From a virus: a DNA stretch of 40,167 bases. The notes beneath the pieces were generated by a model, which saw only the letters and a program-made list of their open reading frames with translations, was not told where the DNA came from and did no database searches. The stretch lies in UHGV virus genome UHGV-1350284. One strand, written 5' to 3'. The number at the start of each line of letters is the position of its first letter. Within the stretch, counting starts at the first letter, position 1. Made by a program: the position numbers and the translations under genes. This document shows positions 516 to 37,575 of the stretch, piece after piece.

Positions 516-534
516 TTACCAAAAAGGTAATAAT
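516..534 (+). promoter_or_regulatory. Operator palindrome TTACCAAAAAGGTAA fused to a TGGTAATAAT extended -10 element. Candidate repressor-controlled late promoter upstream of the gp6.7-like and portal genes.
   Basis: This 15-bp palindrome is identical to the OR site at 30708-30722. The right half-site continues into TAATAAT. Confidence 0.5.
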
Positions 535-583
535 TTATCGTCAAAAGGTCAATACACTACGACAAATAAATCATATGTGGTTA

Positions 584-596
584 AATTGGTAATAAT
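584..596 (+). promoter_or_regulatory. Second TTGGTAATAATTT extended -10-like element 25 nt upstream of the gp6.7-like start
   Basis: Same TGGTAATAAT element lies in an AT-rich leader. GGAG follows 7 nt before the ATG at 620. Confidence 0.4.
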
Positions 597-619
597 TTAA
601 ACGCGTATGGAGTATCGAT

Positions 620-826
620 ATGTGCATTGGCAGCAAGCCTTCAGTACCTGCAGCACCAGAAGTTCAGGCGGCTCCGCAGGAACAGGATCAGGCTGTAGTC
701 GATTCTCGCGATGAAGAAACCAGGCGTCGCCGTGCGGCCGCCGGGCGTAGTTCTACGCTGCTGACCGGGGCGCAGGGTGATACCTCCGCCGCAAATACCA
801 GCGGCAAAACGCTGCTCGGTCAGTAA
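620..826 (+). CDS. Small virion protein, T7 gp6.7-like (N-terminal MC(I/F)xxKP motif)
   Basis: 68 aa, MCIGSKPSVPAAP..., with a basic and Ser/Thr-rich C-terminus. It sits immediately upstream of the portal gene, as in T7. Confidence 0.45.
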   Translation: MCIGSKPSVPAAPEVQAAPQEQDQAVVDSRDEETRRRRAAAGRSSTLLTGAQGDTSAANTSGKTLLGQ

Positions 827-840
827 CTGGAGCGCGGAAG

Positions 841-2523
841 ATGACAGCGGAAACCCTGAAAGAGCAACTGCAAAAGCAGCAGGCACAGCTCACTAATGAT
901 CGCTCATCGTTCGATCCGCACTGGCGCGAACTGAGCGACTTCATCAATCCGCGTGGCTCCCGCTTCCTGGTCACCGATGTAAACCGGGATGACCGCCGCA
1001 ATACGAAAATTGTTGACCCTACCGCCACCCTGGCAGCACGCACGCTATCGAGCGGCATGATGTCGGGGATCACTTCTCCTGCGCGCCCGTGGTTCAAGCT
1101 GGCAACGCCTGACCCTGACATGATGGACTACGGCCCAGTGAAGCTGTGGCTTGAAGTCGTTCAGCGCCGCATGAACGAAGTGTTCAACAAATCCAATATC
1201 TACCAGTCACTGCCTCTGCTTTACGCCAGCCTGGGGAATTACAGCACCGGCGCTATGGCTGTTCTGGAAGATGACAGCGACGTTATCCGCACGATGATGT
1301 TCCCGATCGGCAGTTACTACATGGCGAACTCTGCGCGCGGCAGCGTTGACACCTGTTTCCGCAAATTCTCAATGACGGTGCGCCAGCTGGTAATGGAGTT
1401 TGGCCTCAATAACGTCAGCGATTCAGTGAAGGGCATGTGGGATTCCGGGAACTACGAAAGCTGGATCGAAGTTATTCATGCCGTTTATCCGAACATCGAC
1501 CGCGATACCGCCAAGCTCAACAGCAAAAATAAGCCGGTCAAATCGGTTTATTACGAGGTTGGAGGCGACAGCGATAAGTTGCTGCGTGAGTCTGGTTTCG
1601 ATGAATTCCCGATTATGGCGCCGCGCTGGGAAGTGAACGGCGAGGACGTATACGGCTCATCCTGCCCGGGCATGATCGCTCTTGGTCAGGTTAAGGCTCT
1701 GCAGCTTGAGCAAAAGCGCAAAAGCCAGCTGATCGACAAGGCCACCAACCCGCCGATGGTTGGCCCGTCATCACTCCGCAACCAGCGCGTTTCCCTTTTG
1801 CCTGGCGATATTACCTATATCGATCAGGTCACCGGCCAGGAAGGATTTAAGCCCGCCTATCTGGTTAACCCGAATACCGCCGACCTGCTCGCCGATATCC
1901 AGGATACCCGGCAGATCATCAACAGCGCCTACTTTGTCGACCTCTTCATGATGTTGCAGAACATCAATACCCGCTCGATGCCGGTTGAAGCAGTGATCGA
2001 GATGAAAGAAGAGAAGCTGTTGATGCTGGGCCCGGTGCTGGAACGTCTGAACGACGAATGCCTGAACCCGCTTATCGATCGCACCTTCTCCATCATGGCG
2101 AGAAAAAACCTTCTCCCGCCACCGCCGGACGTCCTGCAGGGTATGCCGCTGCGCATTGAGTACATCTCAGTGATGGCGCAGGCGCAGAAATCTATAGGCC
2201 TTTCCAGCCTGTCATCCACCGTTGGCTTCATTGGCCAGCTGGCACAGGCCAAGCCGGAAGCGCTGGACAAACTCAACGTGGATCAGGCCATCGATGCATT
2301 CGCGGAGATGTCCGGTGTCTCGCCGACAGTCATCGTTCCACAGGAACAGGTTGAGCAGGTTCGCGAGCAGCGCGCTCAGCAGCAGCAACAGCAGCAAATG
2401 GTGGCTATGGGCATGGCTGCCGCTCAGGGTGCCAAGACCCTCAGCGAAGCGCAGACGGCGGATCCCAGCGTACTGACAGCGCTTTCTAACGCAGCAGGTG
2501 CTCCTGCAGGTGGTCAGCAATGA
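841..2523 (+). CDS. Portal (head-to-tail connector) protein, T7 gp8-like
   Basis: 560 aa. The C-terminal poly-Q and Ala/Met-rich tail (QQQQQQQMVAMGMAAAQGA...) resembles the T7 gp8 C-terminus. It is first in the structural operon. Confidence 0.85.
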   Translation: MTAETLKEQLQKQQAQLTNDRSSFDPHWRELSDFINPRGSRFLVTDVNRDDRRNTKIVDPTATLAARTLSSGMMSGITSPARPWFKLATPDPDMMDYGPVKLWLEVVQRRMNEVFNKSNIYQSLPLLYASLGNYSTGAMAVLEDDSDVIRTMMFPIGSYYMANSARGSVDTCFRKFSMTVRQLVMEFGLNNVSDSVKGMWDSGNYESWIEVIHAVYPNIDRDTAKLNSKNKPVKSVYYEVGGDSDKLLRESGFDEFPIMAPRWEVNGEDVYGSSCPGMIALGQVKALQLEQKRKSQLIDKATNPPMVGPSSLRNQRVSLLPGDITYIDQVTGQEGFKPAYLVNPNTADLLADIQDTRQIINSAYFVDLFMMLQNINTRSMPVEAVIEMKEEKLLMLGPVLERLNDECLNPLIDRTFSIMARKNLLPPPPDVLQGMPLRIEYISVMAQAQKSIGLSSLSSTVGFIGQLAQAKPEALDKLNVDQAIDAFAEMSGVSPTVIVPQEQVEQVREQRAQQQQQQQMVAMGMAAAQGAKTLSEAQTADPSVLTALSNAAGAPAGGQQ

Positions 2524-2819
2524 CAGATTTTGATGATGACCAGTTGGCTGCTGAATCGGCACGCGAGAAGGAAATCCTTCAACAGCGTGACATTGAAGAT
2601 ATCCGTTTCGTCATGGGGAGCGAGCAGGGCCGCCGGGTGATCTGGGGGGTACTGGAGCAGGGCAAGGTGTTTTCTGCCTGCTTTGCCGGTGATCCGCAAG
2701 TGACTGCTTTCAACGAGGGGCAGCGCAACCTGGCGCTGGCATTGTTCCAGCGCGTCATGGCGCACTGCCCTGAACAGTATCTGAAGATGGCCGCAGAGGC
2801 TAATGGGGTAATCAAATGA
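2520..2819 (+). CDS. Hypothetical virion-module protein (99 aa)
   Basis: ATGA start/stop overlap with the portal gene. Acidic N-terminus. Confidence 0.55.
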   Translation: MTDFDDDQLAAESAREKEILQQRDIEDIRFVMGSEQGRRVIWGVLEQGKVFSACFAGDPQVTAFNEGQRNLALALFQRVMAHCPEQYLKMAAEANGVIK

Positions 2820-3139
2820 CTCAGATCCAAAAACAGCGCGTAGTCCGATTCGATGGCAATAAGCAGATCGTTGAAGCTCCCGATCCGGCGCCGGCAGTAA
2901 TTGGCGCTCCGACCACGACAGATTACGGCGGTGTGAAGCTTGGCGCGGCGATTGCGGCTCCGGCTGCAATGACGGCAACCGCTGACACCAACTCTTCAGC
3001 ATCAGACGTTGCTGGTCTTGTCACTGACCACAATGACCTGGTCGCCAAATACAACGCGCTGCTGACAGATACCACTGCACTGCGCACCACTCTTGCCGCA
3101 GTTCTGGCGCAACTCAAAGCCAAAACGATCCCGGTTTAA
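2816..3139 (+). CDS. Hypothetical virion-module protein (107 aa), Ala/Thr-rich
   Basis: ATGA overlap with the upstream ORF. Confidence 0.55.
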   Translation: MTQIQKQRVVRFDGNKQIVEAPDPAPAVIGAPTTTDYGGVKLGAAIAAPAAMTATADTNSSASDVAGLVTDHNDLVAKYNALLTDTTALRTTLAAVLAQLKAKTIPV

Positions 3140-3150
3140 GGAGATAACCA

Positions 3151-3849
3151 ATGAACTTATTTGATCGCCTGCTGTATCGCCGACTTTGCAATGAGCAGCC
3201 TGCCGACGGTGGCGCCGCTCCGGCAGCGGCATCCGAACCTGCTCCGGCGGGCGGCGATAACCCTGCTGGTAACCCTGCATCGCCAGAAGCTGCTTCTGAC
3301 GCTCCAGAAAATGGCGCTGATCCGAAAAAGACGGACGAAGGCAAGGATCCTGATGATGGCAAGCAGGAAGGAAAGAAAGATGACGGCAAGCCTGATGGTG
3401 CGCCAGAGAAGTATGAATTTACGGCCGCCGAGGGTGTCGACCTGGATGCTGAAGCGCTGAAAGATTTCGAGCCGGTAGCGCGCGAGCTGAACCTGACCAA
3501 TGAGCAGGCGCAGAAGCTGGTGGATGCATACCCGAAAATTCTGGCTGGTGTGCAGCAGCGTCAGGCAGAAGCATGGCAGGCGCAAACTGAAGAGTGGGCA
3601 GCAACTGTGAAGGCCGATAAAGAAATCGGCGGCGATAAGTTGACAGCCAACCTCGGCGTTGCTCAGCGAGCCCTGGACACCTTCGGCACTCCGGCTCTGA
3701 AAGAGTATTTGAACGGCACAGGGCTGGGTAATCACCCGGAGCTGGTGAAGGCGTTCGTCAAAGTAGGAAAAGCCATGTCAGAAGATGGCGTGGTGACAGG
3801 AAAAGAAAGCGGTCAGCGTAGTGCGGCCGAAGTGCTTTATGGCAAATAA
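3151..3849 (+). CDS. Putative scaffolding protein (acidic, low-complexity N-terminal half)
   Basis: 232 aa. RBS AAGGAGAT. It lies between the portal and major capsid genes. The composition is highly acidic, D/E/K/P/A-rich. Confidence 0.6.
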   Translation: MNLFDRLLYRRLCNEQPADGGAAPAAASEPAPAGGDNPAGNPASPEAASDAPENGADPKKTDEGKDPDDGKQEGKKDDGKPDGAPEKYEFTAAEGVDLDAEALKDFEPVARELNLTNEQAQKLVDAYPKILAGVQQRQAEAWQAQTEEWAATVKADKEIGGDKLTANLGVAQRALDTFGTPALKEYLNGTGLGNHPELVKAFVKVGKAMSEDGVVTGKESGQRSAAEVLYGK

Positions 3850-3863
3850 GAGAGGATATAACC

Positions 3864-4850: not shown

Positions 4851-4865
4851 CCCCTGACTATAACC

Positions 4866-4885
4866 AGCGGCCCGGTAACGGGCTG
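4866..4885 (+). promoter_or_regulatory. 8-bp stem-loop with GNRA loop (GCGGCCCG-GTAA-CGGGCTGC) immediately after the capsid gene. Possible mRNA stabiliser, attenuator or RNase III site.
   Basis: Perfect stem with one G.U pair. No U-tract follows. Confidence 0.35.
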
Positions 4886-4897
4886 CTAAATGGAGAA

Positions 4898-5341: not shown

Positions 5342-5351
5342 GGAGATATCG

Positions 5352-5693: not shown

Positions 5694-5710
5694 GCCTCAG
5701 AATAAACCAG

Positions 5711-5730
5711 GGGGCTTCGGCCCCTTTCTT
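5711..5730 (+). terminator. Rho-independent terminator GGGGC-TTCG-GCCCC followed by TTTCTT
   Basis: GC stem with a UUCG tetraloop and a T-tract. Confidence 0.6.
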
Positions 5731-5743
5731 GTAGGAGCGTTCT

Positions 5744-10152: not shown

Positions 10153-10162
10153 GGAGAGAACT

Positions 10163-17648: not shown

Positions 17649-17836
17649 TGAAAAAAGTGTTTAGGATAATCGGAATAATAACTGGCCTAATTACATTTTT
17701 AAGTGCCGGGTTCTATTTTGTAGAGAATTCCTTCGATAACCTTTTTCACGGCAATATCTTTATCAATATCTCAACTGGTATTGTCTTTATTTTCTCATTG
17801 ATCGGACTGTATTTCATATGGAATAGCAAGCCGTGA
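17648..17836 (+). CDS. Small 2-TM membrane protein (62 aa), low-GC moron
   Basis: TGATG coupling to the gp16-like gene. GC about 33%. Two hydrophobic helices. Confidence 0.55.
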   Translation: MKKVFRIIGIITGLITFLSAGFYFVENSFDNLFHGNIFINISTGIVFIFSLIGLYFIWNSKP

Positions 17837-17844
17837 CATGTCAC
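17833..17844. repeat. Perfect 12-bp palindrome GTGACATGTCAC (copy 1 of 3), overlapping the stop codon of the upstream gene
   Basis: Exact inverted repeat. Related copies at 37126-37137 and 39711-39722. Confidence 0.6.
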
Positions 17845-18410: not shown

Positions 18411-18430
18411 TACTGTATGCATATACATAT
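18411..18430. promoter_or_regulatory. Near-consensus LexA (SOS) box TACTGT-ATGCATAT-ACATAT with one half-site ACAT instead of ACAG. It overlaps the promoter of the 87-aa minus-strand gene.
   Basis: CTGT-N8-ACAT geometry with an AT-alternating spacer. 19 nt upstream of the ATG at 18392 on the minus strand. Confidence 0.35.
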
Positions 18431-18467
18431 AACAAAACCAAAATGTAAATTCTAGGGGGCTCACTGT

Positions 18468-18486
18468 TTACCCTTTAGGTAATAAT
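18468..18486 (+). promoter_or_regulatory. Operator palindrome TTACCCTTTAGGTAA fused to TAATAAT, in the divergent region before the tail-fiber gene
   Basis: Same TTACC-N5-GGTAA palindrome and GGTAATAAT element as at the immunity region. Confidence 0.45.
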
Positions 18487-18528
18487 GCCATTCTTCGATG
18501 TATGTTTTATTCATATACGGTTTGATTG

Positions 18529-18541
18529 GTAATAGAATGAT
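18529..18541 (+). promoter_or_regulatory. TTGGTAATAGAAT extended -10-like element 46 nt upstream of the tail-fiber start
   Basis: Member of the TGGTAATAAT promoter family. Confidence 0.35.
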
Positions 18542-18586: not shown

Positions 18587-20848
18587 ATGACGGTCTCAAC
18601 CGAAGTCGACCATAACGACTACACAGGGAACGGCGTTACCACATCTTTCCCGTACACGTTCCGTATCTTCAAGAAGTCAGATCTCACCGTCCAGGTAGCT
18701 GACCTTAACGAAAATATTACGGTGCTGACTCTGGATACCGATTACTCCGTTACCGGGGCTGGTACCTATTCTGGCGGGAATGTTGTGCTGATGTCACCGC
18801 TGGCCAACGGATGGCAGATTTCTATCTCGCGTGACCTTCCCGTTACCCAGGAGACTGACCTACGCAACCAGGGGAAGTTCTTCGCAGAGGTCCATGAGGA
18901 TGCGTTCGACAAGCTGACGATGCTGATACAGCAGTGCTTCGGCTTCCTTCGCCTGGCGCTACGCAAGCCATCATTTATCGCTAACTATTACGATGCGTTG
19001 AATAACCGCATTAGAAACCTGCGTGACCCGTCACAGGCGCAGGATGCTGCGACGAAGAGCTATGTTGATACAACCGGTGCAGAAAATTTAAGCCACACAT
19101 TACGCTTCCCCGAAGCAGTAGATGCGATGTTGAATGTTGACTTTCGGGCTAATTCCTTGCAGGGATATAATACGCATGGTAAGCCTATTCCTGTCTTTTC
19201 TATGACTGATACTGCAGATCTCGCTCTCAAATTAGCTTCTAATATTGGCCCTGGGTTGATTGGGTTTGACATAGATCAAATATACCCTGCGGATACTATT
19301 GGTAGAAAATTAAATAACGATTTCTATGTGTCTCAAAATCTACAGGATTATTATGACAAGCATGGTAATTGGGATGATGCTATTTTTGAGGCGCAATGCA
19401 ATATTGTAATCAAAAATTACTCACCAATAATCACGCTACCTGCAAAGGTCATGGTTTTCAATAAGCCAATTCTTGGTGGACGTGCTCTTGGTGATGCAAT
19501 TCACGCAGCACATCCAGAGCTTAATTTTTATAACCCATCAACAGACACTTATGCGAAGACGTGGCCATTAATGCTAATAGGTGCCAGAGCGAGATGGGCT
19601 GAAGGAATACTCTTTGAAGGCGTAGGTTCTCAGATAGTTTTCTCTGGGTGTGCAACGCAGCGCGACTACACATATCAGAATTCTGCTGCAATATATAGTG
19701 GGCCAACAAACCCATATGATAGGAAAACACAAAAGGAAGTTTCACAAATAAAATGGTTTGACACGATATACATGCAAGATGTGAACGTCAGATGCTTAAA
19801 CAAGGATTCATCACGCCTTGGGAAAGTGCACGGAATAGTATCCCTCAGTGGTAAATGCCTCCTTAAAAATATAGCAGTATATCAGTTTTACGGGGCAGGT
19901 ATTTACCTTGACTGGAACTTTGAACCTATTGTTGAAGGCTGCGCTGTTATTCAGTGTGGGCGTATGGCAGATGCCCTTCCGGGACCTGGGGTTACTGACG
20001 ATTTTATTACGCTAGGACGTACCGCCAAAGAGTATCAAACATATGGTGCTGTACATGTTGGATACTCAGCGGCAGGAACTGACAACTCAAACTTTGTGTC
20101 ATTCCGAGATCTTCATTTGGAAGATAATTATTACTGCGCTGCTGATGTTATAGTCTCAGGAAATTCATCACCAGTCAGAATTTATGATGTGCATTTTGAG
20201 TGCGACCCAATAGCAATTGGCGAGCTTTCACAAAAATGGGTTATCACATCAGGGCAATATGGCGTCAGGTATTTCGGGCAGGATACCGAGCCAGGCTTTA
20301 ATCCTGCAGTCACTCCATACACCACCAGGGCTGGATATACCACCTTAAATAATGTAGCTGGGTACAGTGCTAATTATGCTGGTTTTTATGGTTCTAGAGG
20401 TACTTCAGGATGCATAGCAGATAATTGTTTTTTCCCTAACGTTGGTAATGTGGAAGTTATCGGGCTTAATGCAAACGCATATTTTTATGCAAATAGTTGT
20501 TCATTTGGTAGTGTGGTGTTCAGCGGTGGTAACGCTAACCTTCAGCCTCTAAAATTAACTGGCTGCAGTGTTTCTTCTATAAGAATGAGTTATGCATATG
20601 GTTATAAATTAGTAAGCACAGAGGTATCTGGAGCCATAACGATTACTAGTGAATTAAGTAATCAGGCTGCTGGATGGCACCACTCCAACGTGAGTGCAGG
20701 AAGCATATCTGCCGTTATTAATTATGGTAGTGGAGACTTGTCTTTAACATCAACAAGCGTGGCCTCTAACATAGTTTGTTATCTAGGGAGCATAGAACTA
20801 CCACGTTATTCTTACTATAACGCTGTAACTCTTGGAGGTGCTTCATAA
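18587..20848 (+). CDS. Tail fiber/tailspike. N-terminal T7 gp17-like adaptor domain, C-terminal low-GC beta-helix (pectate-lyase/depolymerase-like) receptor-binding part.
   Basis: 753 aa. N-terminus ...NGVTTSFPYTF...TLDTDYSV... GC drops sharply from about 19060. Confidence 0.8.
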   Translation: MTVSTEVDHNDYTGNGVTTSFPYTFRIFKKSDLTVQVADLNENITVLTLDTDYSVTGAGTYSGGNVVLMSPLANGWQISISRDLPVTQETDLRNQGKFFAEVHEDAFDKLTMLIQQCFGFLRLALRKPSFIANYYDALNNRIRNLRDPSQAQDAATKSYVDTTGAENLSHTLRFPEAVDAMLNVDFRANSLQGYNTHGKPIPVFSMTDTADLALKLASNIGPGLIGFDIDQIYPADTIGRKLNNDFYVSQNLQDYYDKHGNWDDAIFEAQCNIVIKNYSPIITLPAKVMVFNKPILGGRALGDAIHAAHPELNFYNPSTDTYAKTWPLMLIGARARWAEGILFEGVGSQIVFSGCATQRDYTYQNSAAIYSGPTNPYDRKTQKEVSQIKWFDTIYMQDVNVRCLNKDSSRLGKVHGIVSLSGKCLLKNIAVYQFYGAGIYLDWNFEPIVEGCAVIQCGRMADALPGPGVTDDFITLGRTAKEYQTYGAVHVGYSAAGTDNSNFVSFRDLHLEDNYYCAADVIVSGNSSPVRIYDVHFECDPIAIGELSQKWVITSGQYGVRYFGQDTEPGFNPAVTPYTTRAGYTTLNNVAGYSANYAGFYGSRGTSGCIADNCFFPNVGNVEVIGLNANAYFYANSCSFGSVVFSGGNANLQPLKLTGCSVSSIRMSYAYGYKLVSTEVSGAITITSELSNQAAGWHHSNVSAGSISAVINYGSGDLSLTSTSVASNIVCYLGSIELPRYSYYNAVTLGGAS

Positions 20849-21159: not shown

Positions 21160-21173
21160 AGGAGAGCGTTAAA

Positions 21174-21455: not shown

Positions 21456-21604
21456 GAGTAATAAAATTATTAAATTATTTTTATCAACCAGTTGCGCGAT
21501 GATCATCTTAACAATTTTTGTTGATAATTACCTTTTATTCATATTGGAATTATTGTGTATGATGAGCTTACCAAACTAAGGAGGTTCATCATGCACAGTA
21601 AGCG

Positions 21605-23408: not shown

Positions 23409-23724
23409 CATGGTATTTTTCATGGTACTGTTTCCTGGTGACGGTATATAAAACGGTACGCAGAATTTATCGTTTCATAAACTTGTTTTCAGTCAATTGG
23501 TTACGAGTGCTGTAAATAATTGAGTGGGAATGATTAACGGCTACCTTATAGCTAATCATATCTACTCAAATTGAAATGCAACCCTCTGTTTTTGCAGAGG
23601 GTTTTTCTTTATATCACACCATATCAATTCACTCTATCTCACATTTTTTGACGGTATACATGACGGTATTACCATTACGGTATACTCTCGTACTGTCAGA
23701 AAAATGATGCATCACGGGTGAAAT
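23408..23724. other. attP-like region. Direct repeats A(T/C)GGTA(T/C) x4 at 23410-23460 and ACGGTAT x3 at 23651-23683 with 13-bp spacing (arm-type sites) flank an about 180-bp core that contains a terminator.
   Basis: Two clusters of same-orientation heptamer repeats adjacent to the integrase start. Confidence 0.5.
23582..23610 (+). terminator. Rho-independent terminator CCCTCTG-TTTTTG-CAGAGGG followed by TTTTTCTTT, after the lysis operon
   Basis: 7-bp stem and a 9-nt T-tract. Confidence 0.7.
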
Positions 23725-24975: not shown

Positions 24976-24991
24976 TCCGCCCGTAGGCGGC

Positions 24992-25773: not shown

Positions 25774-25928
25774 GCTGACACCTTCTTGCTATTCAGTTGC
25801 TCCGCCAGTCGCTGAGCCTTCAGCGGGTTCTGGATAACCTGGCCGCCGGGCGCCAGCCAGCCACGGCGCACGGACGAATAAACCAGCGTGATACTGCCTA
25901 CGCGAATGCTGTCGTGTGGGTTAGTCAT
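25770..25928 (-). CDS. Unannotated small ORF (52 aa), ATGA-coupled to the methyltransferase gene
   Basis: Manual translation gives MTNPHDSIRVGSITLVYSSVRRGWLAPGGQVIQNPLKAQRLAEQLNSKKVSA. RBS GGGGTGA. It falls below the ORF-track size cut-off. Confidence 0.35.
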   Translation of the reverse strand: MTNPHDSIRVGSITLVYSSVRRGWLAPGGQVIQNPLKAQRLAEQLNSKKVSA

Positions 25929-26214
25929 AAATCACCCCGGCTGTGGCGCAGATCCCGGCATAGCATCCCTGGCGAAGCCGGTTCCCGCGGCCAATGCACT
26001 GATCGCGGCGTATAGCGATACGGGCCCGCTCAACCTCGCCAGTGGCCGCATCCATGCACTCAAGCCAGAGGCGAGCGGCCAGGCGGTACTGGCCTTTGTT
26101 CTCGCGAGCAATAGCGCGCTGCTCGATCTCCATTGCCGCCGGCGTTACGGCGACAAGAGGGGGCGCTTTGCGCTGCGAGACATAATCCGCGTGGTATTTT
26201 TCCATCCGATTCAT
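25921..26214 (-). CDS. PerC-like small regulator (motif GQYRLAARLWLECMD)
   Basis: Internal ATG at 26214 with RBS GAGAGGG. The longer ORF upstream lacks a plausible start. Confidence 0.4.
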   Translation of the reverse strand: MNRMEKYHADYVSQRKAPPLVAVTPAAMEIEQRAIARENKGQYRLAARLWLECMDAATGEVERARIAIRRDQCIGRGNRLRQGCYAGICATAGVIYD

Positions 26215-26323
26215 CGTATCCAACCCTCTCGAAAAATGACCGCCAGCAGGAACAGCCAGGCGGATATGGCGGCCAGGTACAGAAACCATCCTGACCACCT
26301 TTCCCAGTACCTCGCCAGCGACG

Positions 26324-26572
26324 TCACGCCGCGTTACCAACCTGGCGAAATACTCGCTGCTCAACCGGAGGCTTTTTTCCAGCAAACTCCGTTGTGCCGT
26401 TCTGCTGACGTTCATCAAGCCAGCGCTCGATCTCTTCGCTGTTCCAGGCACAGCGCTTGTCAGTGATCCAGAAACGCTTAGGGAACTCCCCGTTTTTCTC
26501 CATGCGGTCGATAGTGCTCATCGATACGGGCACCACCGCTAGCAGTTCCTTTTTGCCTAATGCACCTTTCAT
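26324..26572 (-). CDS. AlpA-family DNA-binding protein (putative excisionase or transcriptional regulator)
   Basis: ...LLAVVPVSMSTIDRMEKNGEFPKR...WNSEEIERWLDER pattern. Confidence 0.65.
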   Translation of the reverse strand: MKGALGKKELLAVVPVSMSTIDRMEKNGEFPKRFWITDKRCAWNSEEIERWLDERQQNGTTEFAGKKPPVEQRVFRQVGNAA

Positions 26573-26620
26573 CGTTACCTCTCTTTTTTCAGTGCGGCGC
26601 CGGGCGCGCCGCGGTGGTGA

Positions 26621-28616: not shown

Positions 28617-28623
28617 ACGCACC

Positions 28624-29837: not shown

Positions 29838-29850
29838 ACACACCTCACTA

Positions 29851-30002
29851 TTACCATTTGGTAAATATCAGGGGTATGAGAAAACCACCCGTTGGTGGAT
29901 TTCTGGTAATTCAACGCCCTGTTGTTACCGTTAAGGTAATGATCTGATCAATTTATGGCTGTGTCAATAGATTTGACGAGGAAAAATTTACCATTTTGGT
30001 AA
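29851..30002. promoter_or_regulatory. OL-type operator cluster. Three TTACC-N4/5-GGTAA palindromes at 29851-29864, 29925-29939 and 29988-30002, plus the leftward promoter.
   Basis: TTACCATTTGGTAA, TTACCGTTAAGGTAA, TTACCATTTTGGTAA. Confidence 0.6.
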
Positions 30003-30055
30003 GTGCATGAGACGCGGGGAGTTATCCCATCAGGGAGTGACAGGTAAGTTAGAGG

Positions 30056-30637
30056 TTACTGGTTCTGGCTGACGATGAACTTGATGAAGGCGGCGATCTT
30101 GTTTTTCTCTTCCTGCGGCAGCCCGGCGTATTCATGGTGGTCATAGTCAATCAGACCAGCATTACCAGGCGGCAGGATCAGCTCATATGCATCGCGGCCG
30201 AACGCCCTGGCGATAGCCGACAGTACGCCAATGCTGGTGGAGCCTTCGCAGTTCAGGATGCGATTTACGGTCGCCTGGCCGATACCGGCCGCTTCCGAAA
30301 CCTTTTTCTCTGAGTTCAGATCCGGATGCTGTCCCATCCATACACCCAGGGTAAACGCTGCCTGCTTTTCCACACTCCATTCCTGCGGGTCGATAATCTC
30401 CGGCAGCGTCGGGGTATCTGACAGATGGTCGATATCCAGCCAGAAACGACCTTTCCCGGCGAACGACTCGATCTCGCGTGCCGCGTTAGCGCCGATATTT
30501 TTTGTCCCCTTGCTCCACCTGTTAACGAGGTTAGCTGATTTTTTGATTCTCTCGGCAAACCGGAGTTGCGTGTTATCGAAATCCTTCCGGATTATCTCAT
30601 TGAGGTTGTCGCGTCTTATGTCGTAGATGCTTTTCAT
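30056..30637 (-). CDS. Prophage repressor (cI analogue) with two XRE-type HTH domains and no S24 peptidase domain
   Basis: 193 aa. It is flanked by operator clusters and divergent from the cro-like gene. It appears leaderless (no SD sequence). Confidence 0.7.
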   Translation of the reverse strand: MKSIYDIRRDNLNEIIRKDFDNTQLRFAERIKKSANLVNRWSKGTKNIGANAAREIESFAGKGRFWLDIDHLSDTPTLPEIIDPQEWSVEKQAAFTLGVWMGQHPDLNSEKKVSEAAGIGQATVNRILNCEGSTSIGVLSAIARAFGRDAYELILPPGNAGLIDYDHHEYAGLPQEEKNKIAAFIKFIVSQNQ

Positions 30638-30690
30638 TTCTATTTTTTTAGCCTGAAATTGTTACCTAACTGATTAAATTTAATAGAATA

Positions 30691-30757
30691 TTACCATAAA
30701 GGTAAACTTACCAAAAAGGTAACAGTCATTGATTTTTACACCAGATTGGTAATAATC
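30691..30757. promoter_or_regulatory. OR-type operator cluster (TTACCATAAAGGTAA 30691-30705, TTACCAAAAAGGTAA 30708-30722, degenerate third site) and pR extended -10 TTGGTAATAAT (30746-30757)
   Basis: Classic divergent immunity-region architecture between the repressor and cro-like genes. Confidence 0.6.
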
Positions 30758-30791
30758 AGGCTGTCTAAAGTTAGTCCGGGACCAAAAAAAT

Positions 30792-31025
30792 ATGAGCGAT
30801 GTGCAAAAATTTGACTTCAAACGCTGCTGGCTCGACCTCTCTCCGGCTGAGCGAGAAGAGTTCGCAAGTGACGCCGGCACGACCAGCCACTACATTCAGG
30901 TTCACCTGACTGGCCGTAGAAGAATTCCACGTAAGCCTCTGTTAGAAAGACTGTTTAAAGCCTGCAAATCCCGTAAGTGGATCTCCGCAAAATCCGACCT
31001 GGTCCTCTGGTTCCACGAACGTTAA
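30792..31025 (+). CDS. Cro-like / YdaS-family HTH protein
   Basis: 77 aa. Motif ...HYIQVHLTGRRRIPRKPLLERL... Confidence 0.55.
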   Translation: MSDVQKFDFKRCWLDLSPAEREEFASDAGTTSHYIQVHLTGRRRIPRKPLLERLFKACKSRKWISAKSDLVLWFHER

Positions 31026-31150
31026 TCCTCAAAACTCACCCTCGCCGCCACCCCCAGGCGGCTCCTGCCTCTCCCTGTACACCAATTTGGTAATAATTAT
31101 CCAAATACGGTTGATCTTTTTTTGGCTTGCTGCAAAATTACCAAAGACAA

Positions 31151-32433: not shown

Positions 32434-33187
32434 CTGGATAAAAGTCGAGGTGATCACACCAGACAAGCCGGAGATTTTCCAGATAGCAGAAATCCTGAAT
32501 ATCGACCCCGACGCGGTACTCGGTAAGCTCGTTCGCATATGGGCATGGGCGGATCAGCAGACTGTCGACGGTAACGCTGGCAGCGTTACAAAAGGAGTGC
32601 TTGACCGTATCGCTTTTATTACAGGATTCGCTGATGCACTGATCGCTGTTGGTTGGCTCGCTTACGACGGAAACAAGCTTATTCTCCCCAACTTTGAGCG
32701 CCATAATGGGGAAAGCTCTAAAAAACGGGCACTTACAAACAGAAGGGTTGCAGCACACCGTAAAAATGAAACGCAGAAAGTAACGCTGGCTGCGTTACAA
32801 AAAGCGTTACCAGAGGAAGAGGAAGAGGAAGAAGTAAAAGATAAGATCCCCCCTAACCCCCCAAGGGGGAGGGAGCCAAAAAAATCTTATCCGTATCCTG
32901 AACAGCTCAATGCCGAAGCCTGGGATGAGTGGAAGGCCTACAGGTCAGAAATGCGGTTTAAAGCCTACGCCCCAACTGAACGGAGCGAGGGGGCAGCAAT
33001 CACCGAACTGATTAACCTGTCTGGCGGAAACCACACACGGCAGATGCAGATCGTGAAGCAGAGCATGGCGAAGGGTTGGAAAGGGCTGTTCGAGCTGAAA
33101 GGCGGCTCTGGGCAGCGAGATGTGAACACCATATCCCGTCCGGATACCGAGATCCCGCCGGGATTCAGGGGCGGGCCGGCGCCCTGA
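32423..33187 (+). CDS. Replication initiator / replisome-organiser-like protein (lambda O-like) with an E-rich linker
   Basis: The N-terminal WIKVEV...IAEILNIDPDAV domain and the C-terminal AWDEWKAYR...ELINLSGG domain are joined by EEEEEEEE. Confidence 0.5.
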   Translation: MASSWIKVEVITPDKPEIFQIAEILNIDPDAVLGKLVRIWAWADQQTVDGNAGSVTKGVLDRIAFITGFADALIAVGWLAYDGNKLILPNFERHNGESSKKRALTNRRVAAHRKNETQKVTLAALQKALPEEEEEEEVKDKIPPNPPRGREPKKSYPYPEQLNAEAWDEWKAYRSEMRFKAYAPTERSEGAAITELINLSGGNHTRQMQIVKQSMAKGWKGLFELKGGSGQRDVNTISRPDTEIPPGFRGGPAP

Positions 33188-33230
33188 CAACCAGCGCAGC
33201 GCGGAAGCGCGTTTTTTTACACCTTAATGT

Positions 33231-33307
33231 TTACCAAAATGGTAATAAAATATGCGCAAGACTATTGATGTTGATCCGTTTATGGTTATAAATTACCAAT
33301 AAGGTAA
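33231..33307 (+). promoter_or_regulatory. Two operator palindromes (TTACCAAAATGGTAA 33231-33245, TTACCAATAAGGTAA 33293-33307) with GGTAATAAAAT -10-like elements, upstream of the VRR-NUC/nin operon
   Basis: AT-rich 125-bp intergenic region after the replication gene. Confidence 0.5.
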
Positions 33308-33312
33308 AAATC

Positions 33313-33660
33313 ATGCGAAAGACACTACAGGCACTTGGCCGGCTTAAAGCGGGCCAGATGAACAAAACCGAAACGGCGTATGCGCAAGAGCTTGAGCTGC
33401 GTAAGCGCTACGGGGAAATCGCCTGGTACCGGTTCGAAGGCATCAAGCTGCGTCTGGCTGACAACACGTTCTACACGCCTGACTTCGCCGTGATGCTGGC
33501 AAACGGCCAGATGGAATTGCATGAGGTGAAGGGGGGTTACTGGACCGACGATGCCAGGGTGAAAACCAAAGTCGCCGCCGACCAGTACCCATTCCGGATC
33601 ATCGGAGTAACGAAGCTCCCGGAAAAAGCCGGTGGCGGGTGGAAGGTCGAAGAGTTCTAA
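33313..33660 (+). CDS. VRR-NUC domain nuclease (PD-(D/E)xK)
   Basis: ...TPDFAV...ELHEVKG... motif. RBS AAGGT. Confidence 0.6.
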   Translation: MRKTLQALGRLKAGQMNKTETAYAQELELRKRYGEIAWYRFEGIKLRLADNTFYTPDFAVMLANGQMELHEVKGGYWTDDARVKTKVAADQYPFRIIGVTKLPEKAGGGWKVEEF

Positions 33661-33721
33661 AACAACGATCTTCATTGATATCAATTGAATCAATAAGTTA
33701 AACGGGTAAGCGGGGGTAAGT

Positions 33722-33856
33722 ATGGATTTTGATTTCGTGAATTACAGTCGGCGGTCACTGCTGCTGTTCGTGATGGTGGCAAACATCATTGGTTGGGTGG
33801 CAATCGTCGCCGTCCTGTATGTGGCTTATCTGGCGATCGAGTGGGTGACAGCATGA
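33722..33856 (+). CDS. Unannotated small single-TM protein (44 aa)
   Basis: Translation MDFDFVNYSRRSLLLFVMVANIIGWVAIVAVLYVAYLAIEWVTA. RBS GGGGGTAAG. ATGA coupling to the next gene. Confidence 0.45.
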   Translation: MDFDFVNYSRRSLLLFVMVANIIGWVAIVAVLYVAYLAIEWVTA

Positions 33857-34260
33857 ACATCGAAACAGTAAACGAACTCATTCAGTCACTGGAGAGCGCA
33901 GGCGAGCTGTCGATCAGAGAGCAGAAGTTCCTGAAGCTGGCGAAAGCGTTTAAGCAGCTTGCTGCGGAGAATGTGGGGATGAAGTCGTTTGGTGACAAGC
34001 TGAATGGTATGCATAACGCGCTGAATGGAGAAGGAACAGGTATTCAAGGGCGTGCAGAAGTAGCTTGCCAGCAGGTCGCACTGGAAGCAGCAATTGAAGA
34101 GTTCGACGCTATTGAAACCCCCGCCACCGATCGCATCGTAGCCGGGATTAAGGCTGATGGGGTGGAGGAGTTTGCTTCGTATATTTCGCTCTACAATAGC
34201 AACGCGGAGCGACACGCCATTGATTTTGCCAAGCAGCTGCGCGATGGGGACTGCAAATGA
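33853..34260 (+). CDS. Hypothetical alpha-helical protein (135 aa)
   Basis: ATGA-coupled at both ends. Confidence 0.55.
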   Translation: MNIETVNELIQSLESAGELSIREQKFLKLAKAFKQLAAENVGMKSFGDKLNGMHNALNGEGTGIQGRAEVACQQVALEAAIEEFDAIETPATDRIVAGIKADGVEEFASYISLYNSNAERHAIDFAKQLRDGDCK

Positions 34261-34514
34261 ATGACAACATCAACCACCCGTTACGCTACACAAAGGGTGA
34301 TATCGAGTGTATCGATGCGATTAAGGCCGCTACGGTGGGCAAAACAGGTATTGAGGCTGTAGACGTTGGTCACGTTATCCGTTACCTGTGGCGCTACGAA
34401 GAAAAAGATGGATTGGAAAGTGTGAAGAAAGCCGAATGGTATATTAAGCACCTGATTAAAGAACTGGAAGGTAAGCCCGCCGTTACGCAAGATAATTTTG
34501 GAGATCAAGCATGA
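34257..34514 (+). CDS. DUF3310-like phage protein
   Basis: ...DIECIDAIKAA...VIRYLWRY... pattern. Confidence 0.45.
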   Translation: MNDNINHPLRYTKGDIECIDAIKAATVGKTGIEAVDVGHVIRYLWRYEEKDGLESVKKAEWYIKHLIKELEGKPAVTQDNFGDQA

Positions 34515-35092
34515 CTGATATCACCGAACTGGCGCAGAGCCTGAAAGCGGCAGCAGAGAAGGCCACTCAGGGGAACTGGAGAGCATTCCAATACCACGAC
34601 GGTCGTTGTGGTATTGGCGGAGGCCATCACGATGAAATTATGGTGTGTGAGCACATCAGCAAAGAGCGCCCGCATGATGCTATGTTCATCGCCCTGGCTA
34701 ACCCTGCCAACATCCTCGCGCTGGTAGAGGCGCTGGAGAAGGCGCAGCAGGTGGACGAAGAGCTTTGCAAGCTGCTTCCTCCAGGCGTTGAGTACATGGA
34801 CCCACCAGACGGCGGAGATGTAACACCGCTTGAGGGAGTGCGTCGAATGGTGGCTGATTACCGCCAGCTCATCGCCGAGCTGGAGTCCCGCACCGTGAAG
34901 CTGCCGAAGCCACACGCTCACTTAATCTGGATTCAGGCAGGCCATGCACCAGACGATTACTGGGATGACGTAGCGGTATCTCACAGTGAGAAAGACCGCT
35001 GTTGTGATGGTTCCGAGCGCTACCCAGTTTATGCGCGCTGGGAGATTGAAGAGATGATGTCCGCCGCTGGCATCAAGGTGGAGGCTGAATGA
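34511..35092 (+). CDS. Ead/Ea22-like family protein
   Basis: ...ATQGNWRA... and ...FIALANPANILALVEALEKAQ... motifs. Confidence 0.5.
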   Translation: MTDITELAQSLKAAAEKATQGNWRAFQYHDGRCGIGGGHHDEIMVCEHISKERPHDAMFIALANPANILALVEALEKAQQVDEELCKLLPPGVEYMDPPDGGDVTPLEGVRRMVADYRQLIAELESRTVKLPKPHAHLIWIQAGHAPDDYWDDVAVSHSEKDRCCDGSERYPVYARWEIEEMMSAAGIKVEAE

Positions 35093-35268
35093 TGACGGAG
35101 CGTTGGAAAATTTATCTCACTATTGCATTCATCGGCTTGGGAGCTACGCCGATAAGCATGGTAGCGGCAAAGATTGACGTGCCTGTTTGGGCGCTTATTG
35201 CCGGGCACTGCGGCGCGACTATAGCAGGATTTATTTGCGCAGAACTTGGACGGGGAGCCAGACAATGA
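35089..35268 (+). CDS. Unannotated small 2-TM membrane protein (59 aa)
   Basis: Translation MMTERWKIYLTIAFIGLGATPISMVAAKIDVPVWALIAGHCGATIAGFICAELGRGARQ. ATGA overlaps at both ends. Confidence 0.45.
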   Translation: MMTERWKIYLTIAFIGLGATPISMVAAKIDVPVWALIAGHCGATIAGFICAELGRGARQ

Positions 35269-36131
35269 CCAGCAAATTTAGCATCGACAACAGAGAGCTG
35301 CTTCAGAGAATCAGTAGCGGCGAGGCTGTTGTGGGAATTGATTTTGGTAATCTAATCGTCAGGGAGCTGGCTGCATTCAGGCTGGCCGCAATGGACAGCA
35401 GCGAGTCGGTTGAACTGCCTCTTGACTACCTGCAGGGACACAAAGACGGCCTGGAGTGGGCCTCCCAACTGGCGGAAGCCAGCCACCCTGAAACCGGAGA
35501 CTGGCTTTACGATGACCCTATCGAGCTGGCAAAAGCTATTCGCAAAGGTCCAGATATGCCGCCAGCGCAGCCGGTAGCGGACAGCGAGCCGGATCGCAAT
35601 CCTGTGCTGGCGTATGCCGACAGTTATCGCGATATGGCGAAACAAGGCGTCGAGTCAGTCCCAATATGGAGCGTCATTACCGACCTCGAGCGAAACATTG
35701 CTCCGCTCTATCGCCACGCGCAGCCAGCGCCGGAACGTGAGCAGGTACGCCGCGAGCACGCAGAGTGGTCACAGGCAACATTCGGAAATGTCGGCCCGGT
35801 TGGGCCGCTGAAGCACCTCAGCAAAGAAGCGCTGGAAGCCGCCGCCGAACCCGGCGACCTCAGCGAGTGGGCTGATATGCAGTTCCTGATGTGGGATGCC
35901 CAGCGCAGAGCGGGAATCACTGACGAGCAGATTACCCAGGCGATGATCGATAAGCTGGCGGTAAACAAGCAGCGCGAATGGCCGGAGCCGAAAGACGGTG
36001 AACCGCGGTTGCACATCAAAGGGCTGCCTGCACCGGTAGTAGAACGTGAGCCCATCGCGTGGCTCAATGACGCATATTTAGCTCGCGGCGTCGTTGACGG
36101 TGAGGCTGGTAGCGAAGATGCAGGCCCCTGA
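35265..36131 (+). CDS. Two-domain protein: unknown N-terminal domain plus C-terminal MazG-like nucleotide pyrophosphohydrolase (DUF550-type)
   Basis: C-terminal ...HLSKEALEAAAEPGDLSEWADMQFLMWDAQRRAGITDEQI...NKQREWPEP... Confidence 0.55.
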   Translation: MTSKFSIDNRELLQRISSGEAVVGIDFGNLIVRELAAFRLAAMDSSESVELPLDYLQGHKDGLEWASQLAEASHPETGDWLYDDPIELAKAIRKGPDMPPAQPVADSEPDRNPVLAYADSYRDMAKQGVESVPIWSVITDLERNIAPLYRHAQPAPEREQVRREHAEWSQATFGNVGPVGPLKHLSKEALEAAAEPGDLSEWADMQFLMWDAQRRAGITDEQITQAMIDKLAVNKQREWPEPKDGEPRLHIKGLPAPVVEREPIAWLNDAYLARGVVDGEAGSEDAGP

Positions 36132-36188
36132 TATATTCCAGTGTATCGCGAAGCAGGAACACAGCCAGCGCCGGGAGTACCTGAAAGC

Positions 36189-36314
36189 ATGCCTGATAGT
36201 GTGTATGAAATTCTTTGTGCTGCATGCGGTGATAAGGCTTGGGCGTATGCAGATCTTCTTTGGAATGAATGCCGCGCCGCCATGCTCGCAGCCGCCCAAC
36301 AGGAGGGAAAATGA
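36189..36314 (+). CDS. Unannotated Cys-rich mini-protein (41 aa), ATGA-coupled to the DUF551-like gene
   Basis: Translation MPDSVYEILCAACGDKAWAYADLLWNECRAAMLAAAQQEGK. It is in a different frame from the listed 36094-36336 ORF. Confidence 0.35.
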   Translation: MPDSVYEILCAACGDKAWAYADLLWNECRAAMLAAAQQEGK

Positions 36315-36610
36315 CTATAGCCATCGATCGACTTAAAGAAGTGACAAGGGACTTTGGCCGCAGGCACATCGCCTACCAGATGGCCAGGGAACTTCTGGAG
36401 ATTTATAGCGGTAACGGCCCGGTAGTCTGGAATGTGTTGAGCGATTTCCCTCCTGAGGTGAATGGCAAATATCTTGTCATTACCAGCTACGGGGATATTC
36501 GGACCGCCTGCTATGACTGCGAATCAGGGGAATGGCGGGCTTCAGATGGCACCATTACCGGAGTTATCAAATGGATGGATTTGCCAGCCTCCCCGCAGGA
36601 GGTGAAATGA
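36311..36610 (+). CDS. DUF551-like phage protein
   Basis: ...GKYLVITSYGDIRTACYDCESGEWRASDG...IKWMDLPASP. RBS AGGAGGG. Confidence 0.5.
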   Translation: MTIAIDRLKEVTRDFGRRHIAYQMARELLEIYSGNGPVVWNVLSDFPPEVNGKYLVITSYGDIRTACYDCESGEWRASDGTITGVIKWMDLPASPQEVK

Positions 36611-36798
36611 TGGCGTACATCTTCCTGATTTTCGTCATCAGCAGCAATACATCGAATATGCAGGCGGTTCCCATGCAGAGTATGGAGCAGTGCAAAGCAG
36701 CCATTAAGGCGATGAAAGTTGCAGATGATAAGAGGTCCTGGGATGACGTTTCGCCAAGCGTAGATAATATTCAATGCGTAGAGGTGAAAGGTGCCTAA
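36607..36798 (+). CDS. Small protein with a hydrophobic N-terminus (63 aa, putative secreted or membrane-anchored)
   Basis: ATGA overlap. MMAYIFLIFVISS followed by a Cys-containing soluble part. Confidence 0.4.
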   Translation: MMAYIFLIFVISSNTSNMQAVPMQSMEQCKAAIKAMKVADDKRSWDDVSPSVDNIQCVEVKGA

Positions 36799-37129
36799 AT
36801 CCCCCGCAGAACGCAAAGCCGCGCAGCGCGCGCGGCAGTCCGCCGCCGGTGAGCGCAAAATTGAACTGGTGCTGGATGAGCAGGAGCAGGAAATGCTGGC
36901 GCGTAATTGCGCCGCCCGGCGTCCTGGTCGCGATCCCTACGAAATGGCCGAGTACATCGCGCTGCTGATCCGCCAGGATGATGCCCGGGTGCGCGGACGT
37001 ATAAAGTCAATCAGTAAGCGCCGCTGCGGTAAGTGTGGCGATGCGCTGCCGGTGGCGTCATGCCCGTGCGCTGGCGATTCCCAATGCTGGGCTACGCTTG
37101 GCTGGCACGAAACGAAATTACCACTGTGA
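36791..37129 (+). CDS. Zinc-ribbon protein (112 aa, GTG start), possible regulator of the downstream late/packaging genes
   Basis: C-terminal RCGKCGD...CPCAG. Located just before the SOS promoter and TerS. Confidence 0.4.
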   Translation: MPKSPAERKAAQRARQSAAGERKIELVLDEQEQEMLARNCAARRPGRDPYEMAEYIALLIRQDDARVRGRIKSISKRRCGKCGDALPVASCPCAGDSQCWATLGWHETKLPL

Positions 37130-37137
37130 TATGTCAC
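37126..37137. repeat. GTGATATGTCAC, near-palindromic copy 2 of the GTGACATGTCAC motif, overlapping the stop codon of the upstream gene
   Basis: One mismatch to a perfect palindrome. Same relation to a stop codon as copy 1. Confidence 0.5.
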
Positions 37138-37143
37138 GACAGA

Positions 37144-37186
37144 TTGACTAAATCCTCGCATAATTATACTGTTTAAATATACAGTA
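37144..37186 (+). promoter_or_regulatory. SOS promoter: -35 TTGACT (37144-37149) and consensus-geometry LexA box TACTGTTTAAATATACAGTA (37167-37186) overlapping the -10
   Basis: Perfect CTGT-N8-ACAG with an AT-rich spacer. RBS GAGGT before the ATG at 37205. Confidence 0.7.
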
Positions 37187-37204
37187 TTTTTATGTGAGGT
37201 CATC

Positions 37205-37534
37205 ATGGGTTTTCCATCTCCAGCCAAAGACTACGTCGAGCGAACCCTATCCCCAAATATCCTGTGCCACATTGATGGTAATTGCCGGGTTATCGAAACC
37301 AGCGCCGGATACGCCGTTATCAATACCGCCATCAGGCCAAAGCAGGGGAGTAACATCCTGATATCCCTTTGTGGCCTCCTGCAGTTTGCAGTCGTTCGCG
37401 GGAAGGCAATCATCACCGATGACGGCGAAGCGATTGAAGGCGATGCGCTTGATGATGTCGACGTGAAATGGGTGCTGACATTCCTGGTTAATCGCGTCGA
37501 CTGGCAGAGAGAAGATGATATTCCGATCATGTAA
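37205..37534 (+). CDS. UmuD'-like protein (HumD-like). It starts at the GFPSPA motif, lacks the N-terminal RecA-cleavage tail, and its Ser nucleophile motif is degenerate.
   Basis: MGFPSPAKDYVERTLSPN... aligns with UmuD residues 25-45 (GFPSPAADYVEQRIDLN). SGDSM is replaced by SAGYA. Confidence 0.65.
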   Translation: MGFPSPAKDYVERTLSPNILCHIDGNCRVIETSAGYAVINTAIRPKQGSNILISLCGLLQFAVVRGKAIITDDGEAIEGDALDDVDVKWVLTFLVNRVDWQREDDIPIM

Positions 37535-37556
37535 CATCGCTGGTGGCATGGTATTA

Positions 37557-37575
37557 TTACCGAAAGGGTAATTAT
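37557..37575 (+). promoter_or_regulatory. Operator palindrome TTACCGAAAGGGTAA (with extended flanks ATTATTACC...GGTAATTATTT) 20 nt upstream of TerS
   Basis: Same palindrome family. Candidate repressor-controlled packaging-gene promoter. Confidence 0.45.

Follow-up and report, generated by a model that had tools for sequence, protein, structure and literature searches.

The 40,167-bp window analysed here, the UHGV virus genome UHGV-1350284 at its whole length, repeats one palindrome, TTACC-N5-GGTAA, in front of early, late and accessory operons. This palindrome is probably the operator of the immunity repressor Rep, so that one repressor would directly contact promoters of packaging, virion and accessory genes; that a single repressor governs many operons directly is plausible and is the most economical reading. 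The argument is built on the positions of the sites, their enrichment, conservation and spacing, and the homology of Rep, and from these we infer Rep binding, promoter positions, looping and control by the antirepressor Ant and LexA in this phage. The window is a complete genome, both ends of which are contiguous in a related prophage of Klebsiella pneumoniae ATCC 13883. It belongs to a temperate podophage of the epsilon15/phiV10/SPN1S (Uetakevirus-like) group from Klebsiella, is 95-98% identical to the Klebsiella prophage ST11-OXA245phi3.2, and has virion genes ~78% identical to those of Salmonella phage epsilon15.

Nine exact copies of the palindrome are present (cores at 516, 18468, 29925, 29988, 30691, 30708, 33231, 33293 and 37557) compared with 0.01 expected in shuffled sequence. 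All nine are intergenic, and intergenic DNA makes up 2,455 nt, or 6.1% of the genome, in our own gene map. An earlier, sequence-only reading of this DNA had listed the full sites and described the copies as intergenic, and both statements are borne out; the motif is not equally frequent in coding sequence. Degenerate operators are found at 31078 (TACACCAATTTGGTAAT), where the same reading had placed one correctly, at 30737-30753 (TACACCAGATTGGTAAT) and at 29850-29865 (TTACC-N4-GGTAA). Five exact and two degenerate sites flank the repressor gene rep as the operator clusters OL and OR. The extended operator is a 17-bp palindrome, ATTACC-W5-GGTAAT, and a matrix of 68 distinct sites in 9 genomes gives the consensus (A)TTACC-WWWWW-GGTAA(T), with the central base being A or T in 66 of the 68.

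Relatives were represented by the full genomes of phiV10, SPC32H and Tyrion together with 12-21 kb prophage loci from Klebsiella, two Citrobacter species, Scandinavium, Erwinia dacicola and Superficieibacter. ATTACC-N5-GGTAAT is the top palindrome in nine further genomes, where 5-11 copies occupy orthologous places, and sites at terS, gp3/portal, ant/tailspike, OL, OR and the nin-like operon are shared by all enterobacterial relatives examined. In alignments the half-sites are invariant (in epsilon15, phiV10, SPC32H, Tyrion and the prophages of Klebsiella, Citrobacter, Scandinavium, Erwinia and Superficieibacter) while spacers and flanks diverge. The half-sites at early and late sites are also those found at OL and OR, and the simplest explanation is that whichever protein binds OL and OR binds all of the sites. 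Operator pairs lie 61-63 bp apart in 11 genomes, a spacing of about six helical turns which fits cooperative bridging. Phage ZF40, which is unrelated, lacks the motif.

The sequence-only reading regarded this as an unusual genome-wide architecture. That view is not supported, since multi-operon repression is not new: the epsilon15 record AY150271.2 already annotates orthologous repressor-binding sites, as 'protein_bind / repressor / lysogeny' features ahead of five units. These are at terS (12-27), gp3/portal (2931-2947), tailspike (19895-19911), the leftward early operon (32479, 32554 and 32616) and the RuvC (nin-like) operon (35906), and they carry the same ATTACC-N5-GGTAAT palindrome. The OR pair (33341 and 33358), the proximal nin site (35969) and a lysis site (24704) are left unannotated in the record, which also lacks promoter anatomy, the 62-bp pairing and a second palindrome described below. 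The present analysis adds a map of the individual promoters, the conserved 62-bp pairing and the second conserved motif. A literature search with the operator consensus string returned no match, and the paper on phage ZX5 contains no operator data.

The gene rep (30056-30637, minus strand) encodes a 193-residue homologue of the SPC32H and epsilon15 Rep proteins. It is 64% identical to the epsilon15/SPC32H repressors and matches the SPC32H Rep structure (PDB 5D50, 'Repressor') at E=4.4e-76. Rep has been described as a tetramer which binds palindromic sites via DNA-binding pairs drawn from different dimers, with a tetramerisation domain of a kind that is linked to looping of DNA, and which is removed by the tetrameric antirepressor Ant. 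The N-terminal recognition helix, NLVNRW, is invariant in one alignment (A1) and nearly invariant in a wider set (A7), and a near-constant helix fits an operator half-site that never changes. Relatives with a different recognition helix were sought in a phage collection (37 records), GTDB (11 loci) and a search of 5.8 billion proteins (36 proteins, of which the full-length matches are at least 43% identical). In every Rep relative the helix reads NLVNRW or differs from it by one residue, and the palindrome is unchanged at all enterobacterial loci. Distant matches in Hydrogenovibrio, Thiomicrospira and Paraburkholderia are short helix-turn-helix (HTH) proteins without the motif.

At the early promoters the operators are predicted to lie on or next to the core elements. 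The leftward promoter PL comprises TTGACA (29967-29962), 17 nt and GATCAT (29944-29939), with 10/12 matches in the promoter scan, and this layout, abutting an operator, recurs in relatives (five phages). OL1 (29924-29940, minus strand), which has an exact core, covers the predicted PL start site. OL2 (29987-30003, minus strand) is a distal operator ~63 bp upstream of OL1, with its centre at about -63 of PL. OL3 (29850-29865, minus strand), the variant with an N4 spacer, adjoins the Shine-Dalgarno sequence and ATG (29837) of the first PL gene, and its epsilon15 orthologue (32479-32494) is annotated as a repressor site. Between OL1 and OL3, the PL leader carries a conserved short hairpin followed by a T-run (CCACCAACGGGTGG TTTTCT; 29885-29898, minus strand), which may be an attenuator or terminator before the first PL gene.

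The predicted nin-like promoter P-nin (33265-33308, plus strand) is constructed in the same way. Its -35 element TTGATG (33265-33270) and -10 element TATAAAT (33287-33293) are separated by a spacer of 16-17 nt which holds the second palindrome (33274-33287), and its 'ctaTTGAnn-N17-(-10)|TACC' design is that of PL in 5 phages. The proximal operator (33292-33308) covers the predicted start site and the Shine-Dalgarno sequence of the DUF1064 gene at 33313. The distal operator (33230-33246, plus strand) is 62 bp upstream and directly follows a terminator (33198-33213). At the predicted P-terS (37549-37572, plus strand), an extended -10 element, TGgTATTAT (37549-37557), is overlapped by the operator (37556-37572), and the terS ATG (37592) is found 20 nt past it. 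The arrangement TGnTAyTAT|TACC is kept in epsilon15, SPC32H, phiV10 and Tyrion. At PL, P-nin and P-terS the operator would therefore cover the start site, because the -10 element lies directly 5' of it (GATCAT|TACC, TATAAAT|TACC and TGgTATTAT|TACC, respectively). A minus-strand 'promoter' returned by the scan at 37598-37571 was rejected as it falls inside the terS start region.

Between rep and the rightward promoter PR, OR3 (30690-30706) and OR2 (30707-30723) form a tandem pair with centres 17 bp apart, which is also present in epsilon15, SPC32H, Citrobacter and K. pneumoniae ATCC 13883. The minus-strand GGTAATAT of OR3 could overlap the -10 element of the rep promoter. PR is predicted from a -35 element TTGATT (30729-30734), 16 nt and a -10 element AATAAT (30751-30756). 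The degenerate OR1 (TACACCAGATTGGTAAT, 30737-30753, plus strand) sits between the two and overlaps the -10; phiV10 and Tyrion have a fuller site at this position (GTTACC-N5-GGTGAA/GGTGAG). The first PR gene (30792-31025, plus strand) encodes a small Cro-type HTH protein, here called gp39-like, which matches phrog_35 'transcriptional repressor' at E=8.8e-9. Between this gene and the gp40-like gene, 3' of a conserved hairpin, lies an element (31078-31112, plus strand) made of the degenerate operator (31078-31094) and a copy of the second palindrome (ATCCAAATACGGTT, 31099-31112). In phiV10 and Tyrion the corresponding operator is near-perfect, with the same 19.5-bp offset between the centres of the two motifs.

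At the portal, the operator (515-531, minus strand) occurs within a predicted leftward promoter (515-557) of the form TTGACC-17-TACCTT, with its -35 at 552-547 and its -10 (529-524) inside operator 516. In 8 genomes the reverse complement of TTGAC(A/C) keeps a distance of exactly 15 nt to ATTACC although the bases between them diverge, and the leftward promoter can be read as Rep-controlled. It points to a conserved non-coding stretch, a tRNA-Arg gene (124-200) and a gene of the gp49_66 family. The portal operon itself is more likely served by an invariant block at 569-598 (plus strand; AATCATATGTGGTTAAATTGGTAATAATTT), which consists of the second palindrome (AATCATATGTGGTT, 569-582), N7 and TGGTAATAAT (587-596), with no -35 element present. 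This block is invariant in 5 phages, including its TGGTAATAA, and the TG of an extended -10 is kept there. Its GGTAAT half-site (588-593) is exactly 62 bp from operator 516, an offset kept in 8 genomes.

The conserved non-coding stretch downstream of the predicted leftward promoter measures ~300 nt (about 230-470) and lies between the tRNA-Arg gene and operator 516. RNAalifold predicts hairpins in it with little covariation and Rfam gives no match there; in the Rfam scan nothing was matched except the tRNA. Part of the stretch is labelled as an RNase III site in the epsilon15 record.

The operator at 18467-18483 lies between ant (leftward) and the tailspike gene (rightward); its epsilon15 orthologue (19895-19911) is annotated, and phiV10 has a one-mismatch version. 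The candidate late promoter of the tailspike gene (18509-18538, plus strand) contains the second palindrome (ATTCATATACGGTT, 18509-18522), a GGTAAT half-site (18528-18533) and a -10 element, TAGAAT (18533-18538), with TTCATA 17 nt from TAGAAT. The half-site is 50 bp from operator 18468 in 4 phages. The string TCATATNNGGTTN5GGTAATA occurs only at the portal block and at 18511. For the ORF taken as the ant homologue (18132-18407/18464, minus strand), the matches are phrog_450 and the anti-repressor phrog_1760, and its place is that of the ant gene annotated in SPC32H. A LexA-box-like sequence with one mismatch, CTGTATGCATATACAT (18413-18428, minus strand), is found upstream of it, in the likely ant promoter, and operator 18468 is ~55 bp upstream of this promoter. 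Nothing more is left in the lysis-cassette control region (21527-21566, plus strand) than one ATTACC half-site (21527-21532), a degraded copy of the second palindrome and TATGAT; in relatives the same region carries a full or one-mismatch operator and a perfect AACCATATATGGTT.

The second motif is a 14-bp near-palindrome, AwCCATATrTGGTT, found at 569-582, 18509-18522, 31099-31112 and 33274-33287 and in degenerate form near 21533. It occurs in almost every control region of the relatives (copies at L002 24736 and L004 26452, 34215 and 35385), including their PL and lysis regions, and is perfect (AACCATATATGGTT) in the lysis promoters of phiV10 and Tyrion. With up to 2 mismatches, all matches in five genomes are intergenic, against a chance estimate of about 0.13 per genome. 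It fills the -35/-10 spacer in PL and P-nin, and in the late promoters it takes the place expected for a -35, with N7 between it and the -10. The centre-to-centre distance to the nearest operator is 19.5 bp at PL, nin and gp40, 40.5-43.5 bp at the tailspike, at lysis and at a Bro-type antirepressor moron of phiV10 and Tyrion, and 52.5 bp at the portal. In these two phages an extra operator and second-palindrome module (L002 20497-20552; L004 21393-21448) precedes the inserted Bro-type gene, and the two-motif module therefore travels with acquired genes. The Cro-like gp39 is our best guess, as the simplest candidate, for its binder. A link to the gp49-like protein described below was considered and found no support: ZF40 has a 68%-identical homologue of that protein but neither motif.

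Several points weigh against the explanation by Rep. At the portal and tailspike promoters a mere half-site overlaps the core, the 50-bp offset at the tailspike is out of helical phase with the 62-bp pairs, and operator 18468 is upstream of both flanking promoters and on neither. The second palindrome hints at a second regulator at the late promoters. The Cro-like gp39 shows the same degree of conservation and might be what binds some of the sites. Among the records, loci and proteins searched for co-variation of repressor and site, none of the relatives has a different operator. The mechanism of repression by Rep 'has not been extensively characterized' according to one paper, and its occupancy of sites outside OL and OR is putative both here and in the relatives. 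The sequence-only reading had one repressor (and/or Cro) contacting virion, packaging and accessory promoters; the part of this that stands is the same conserved palindrome at rep and in packaging, virion, tail-fibre and accessory regions, although other regulators are possible.

The PL operon encodes a PerC-like 'transcriptional activator' (25921-26451, minus strand; similarity in the C-terminal ~97 residues) and an AlpA-like regulator (26324-26572, minus strand), both possible further layers of control. The last conserved gene of the nin-like operon (36791-37129) encodes a conserved protein of 112 residues, similar to gp49 of epsilon15 (gp49-like), which matches phrog_536 'transcriptional regulator', belongs to no Pfam or NCBIfam family and is separated from terS by one umuD-like gene. 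It has homologues in ZF40 (68% identical) and in Yersinia and Vibrio phages, and its single-sequence structure model is poor (pLDDT 54). With these candidates and the second palindrome, late transcription need not be governed by Rep alone. At least three separate units make up the late genes, each with a control region of its own. No match to a Q or N family was found (Pfam and PHROGs) among 27 small open reading frames (ORFs) of the regulatory regions, a set which does not cover the whole genome, and within that set the remark of the sequence-only reading that no Q-type antiterminator is recognisable holds.

A tentative extension of the Rep model is a two-motif code, in which each lytic promoter would combine a Rep operator with the second palindrome at a quantised distance and a second regulator would switch early promoters off and late promoters on. 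The distances of 19.5, 40.5-43.5 and 52.5 bp would then be roughly helical-phase, and the second motif would replace the -35 in the three -35-less late promoters (portal, tailspike and lysis). Rep tetramers bridging the 62-bp operator pairs would silence everything in the lysogen, and a phage regulator bound to the second motif would turn the early promoters off and the late ones on. If true, this would provide a late-gene switch without Q-type antitermination.

It is unlikely, in our judgement, that the full palindrome is itself a promoter, with GGTAAT running into a TAATAAT -10 element, transcripts starting 6-8 nt downstream (~541, 18493 and 33258) and the repressor sitting between -35 and -10. 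In its main lines this was the view of the sequence-only reading, which saw the operator fused to an extended -10 and the right half-site entering TAATAAT in most cases. GGTAAT is indeed intergenic in 17 of 49 copies and GGTAATA in 11 of 14, a strong enrichment, and 9 of the 11 intergenic GGTAATA copies have the orientation of the downstream gene. A fused -10 also fits PR, where OR1 overlaps AATAAT, possibly the rep promoter (GGTAATAT, minus strand), and the portal block, whose TTGGTAATAAT is invariant in relatives and fits TGnTAATAA. However, TAATAAT follows the full palindrome in only two of nine cases (516 and 18468). Elsewhere the 3' flank is TAATAAA (33231), TAATGAT (29925) or TAATTAT (37557), and the remaining four sites have no T after GGTAA. 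The TAATAAT-like flanks at 516, 18468 and 33231 are not conserved, with variants in relatives (TAATATC, TAATTAT, TAATAAA, TAACAAA) in which the key -7 T is lost, and no -35 is found at 16-18 nt. At terS the start codon follows the operator by 20 nt and the conserved TGn -10 is upstream of the operator, and the consensus -35 and -10 elements at nin and PL place the operator on the start site. The fusion is largely incorrect. A TGn extended -10 is conserved at P-terS, where the operator follows it, and within the portal block, but not at the tailspike or PR in relatives, nor after the full palindromes at 516, 18468 and 33231. Likewise, the half-site-free copies were partly right: exact TGGTAATAAT occurs at three places only (587, 30747 and 31088), including two of those proposed, while the copy placed at 18529-18541 is TTGGTAATAGAAT at 18526-18538, with no TAATAAT. 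An element proposed as the tRNA promoter (TGTGGTAATC, 217-226, minus strand) is not conserved in relatives and hence is probably there by chance.

We attach a small probability to the proposal that the sites outside OL and OR are used mainly by another phage protein, such as the Cro-like gp39, for lytic timing and not for lysogeny. In lambda, CI and Cro share operators. The gp39-like protein is conserved, with an AGTTSHYIQ.HLT motif and an invariant HTH-like segment, and matches a 'transcriptional repressor' PHROG; it could share the Rep operators or bind the second palindrome. Against this, OL and OR have exactly the half-sites that are seen at the late and early operators. The proposal also overlaps with the explanation by Rep and does not exclude it.

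That the sites are not phage-regulatory at all (repeats arisen by chance, a site for a host factor or remnants of promoter modules that were duplicated) is most improbable: PL, P-nin and gp40 do share a whole module of operator, second palindrome and ctaTTGA, which might reflect duplication, but nine intergenic copies stand against 0.01 by chance, positions and half-sites are conserved across genera while their surroundings diverge, the motif is absent from the unrelated ZF40, and we know of no enterobacterial factor with this consensus.

Under the explanation by Rep, the operators would be distributed over the lytic units as three at PL, three at PR and the rep promoter, one degenerate copy at gp40, two in the nin-like region and one each at terS, portal and ant/tailspike. 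In the lysogen a Rep tetramer with two DNA-binding pairs would occupy them. At PL, P-nin, P-terS, PR and the leftward portal-side promoter, Rep on the proximal operator, which overlaps the -10 or start site, would block access of RNA polymerase, and at PL and P-nin the second operator 62-63 bp upstream would probably give cooperative, loop-type binding. Silencing of the portal and tailspike promoters would depend on a bridge to the operator upstream, on another regulator, or on the two together. Two operators that fall on the ribosome-binding site of a first gene, OL3 and the proximal nin site, could act as roadblocks as well. Induction would proceed as in SPC32H, where cleavage of LexA leads to synthesis of the small antirepressor Ant, which would strip Rep from all operators together. 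Predicted transcription starts are ~29932 (minus), 30763 (plus), 33299 (plus), 37564 (plus), 517 (minus), 600-605 (plus) and 18545 (plus).

Control by one immunity repressor at many dispersed sites is known from phage P1 (C1) and from the 'stoperators' of mycobacteriophage L5 (gp71). The likeness is that of a single immunity repressor acting directly on many transcription units genome-wide. However, the P1 and L5 sites are asymmetric, and the L5 stoperators are within transcribed regions and in one orientation, whereas the sites here are symmetric, intergenic, promoter-associated and often in 62-bp pairs. One published account notes multiple asymmetric operators in mycobacteriophages. For KorA/KorB of the IncP plasmid RP4, a palindromic operator reused in many operon promoters is described, for coordinated repression with cooperative partners; this is a plasmid system with unrelated proteins and no lysogeny switch. 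The closest counterpart is the Rep-operator-Ant system of epsilon15/SPC32H (SPN1S), with the same 17-bp palindrome at the same positions, a Rep 64% identical, a putative ant homologue with a LexA-like box and the same attP core. Here, unlike in those phages, the host genus is Klebsiella, the lysis operator is a half-site and OL3 has an N4 spacer, and an extra, apparently SOS-controlled umuD-like gene which epsilon15 lacks precedes terS. Lambda and P22 have the CI-Cro switch, OL and OR, and Q antitermination. The present genome resembles them in its divergent repressor/cro-like pair, in the multiple palindromic operators over PL, PR and the repressor promoter, and in its leftward (recombination) and rightward (replication, nin) early operons. 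It differs in having operators also at late, packaging and nin promoters and in the lack of a detected N or Q family in the 27 ORFs. Moreover, in contrast to lambda, the repressor would be a tetramer inactivated by an antirepressor, following the SPC32H literature, and not by RecA-stimulated self-cleavage.

If Rep occupies all of the sites, lysogeny would be kept by shutting each lytic operon directly, with no regulatory cascade, and a single antirepressor would release the whole genome together. The 62-bp pairing would fit a looping tetramer, and the second motif may mark the missing late-gene regulator. This bears on how prophages of Klebsiella, Salmonella and E. coli O157 are induced and on the engineering of reporter or therapeutic phages.

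Other elements were noted alongside the operators. The attP region (23519-23535 and 23650-23685) holds the core attgagtgggaatgatt, identical to that of epsilon15, phiV10 and ZX5, and three copies of ACGGTAT beside it, which are probably integrase arm sites. A near-match to the operator at 23668 overlaps these repeats and was dismissed as spurious for that reason. A UmuD/HumD-like ORF (37205-37534), inserted between the gp49-like gene and terS, is preceded by a perfect LexA box, CTGTTTAAATATACAG (37169-37184), and looks like an SOS-controlled accessory gene. Finally, a perfect 12-bp palindrome, GTGACATGTCAC, occurs beside terminator-like hairpins at 17833-17844 and 39711-39722 and in relatives (L001 2142, 19517 and 39612; L003 2145, 19634 and 38629). 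Its copies mark operon 3' ends, behind terL and the structural operon and, in relatives, also behind the nin-like operon; it may be a protein site tied to termination.

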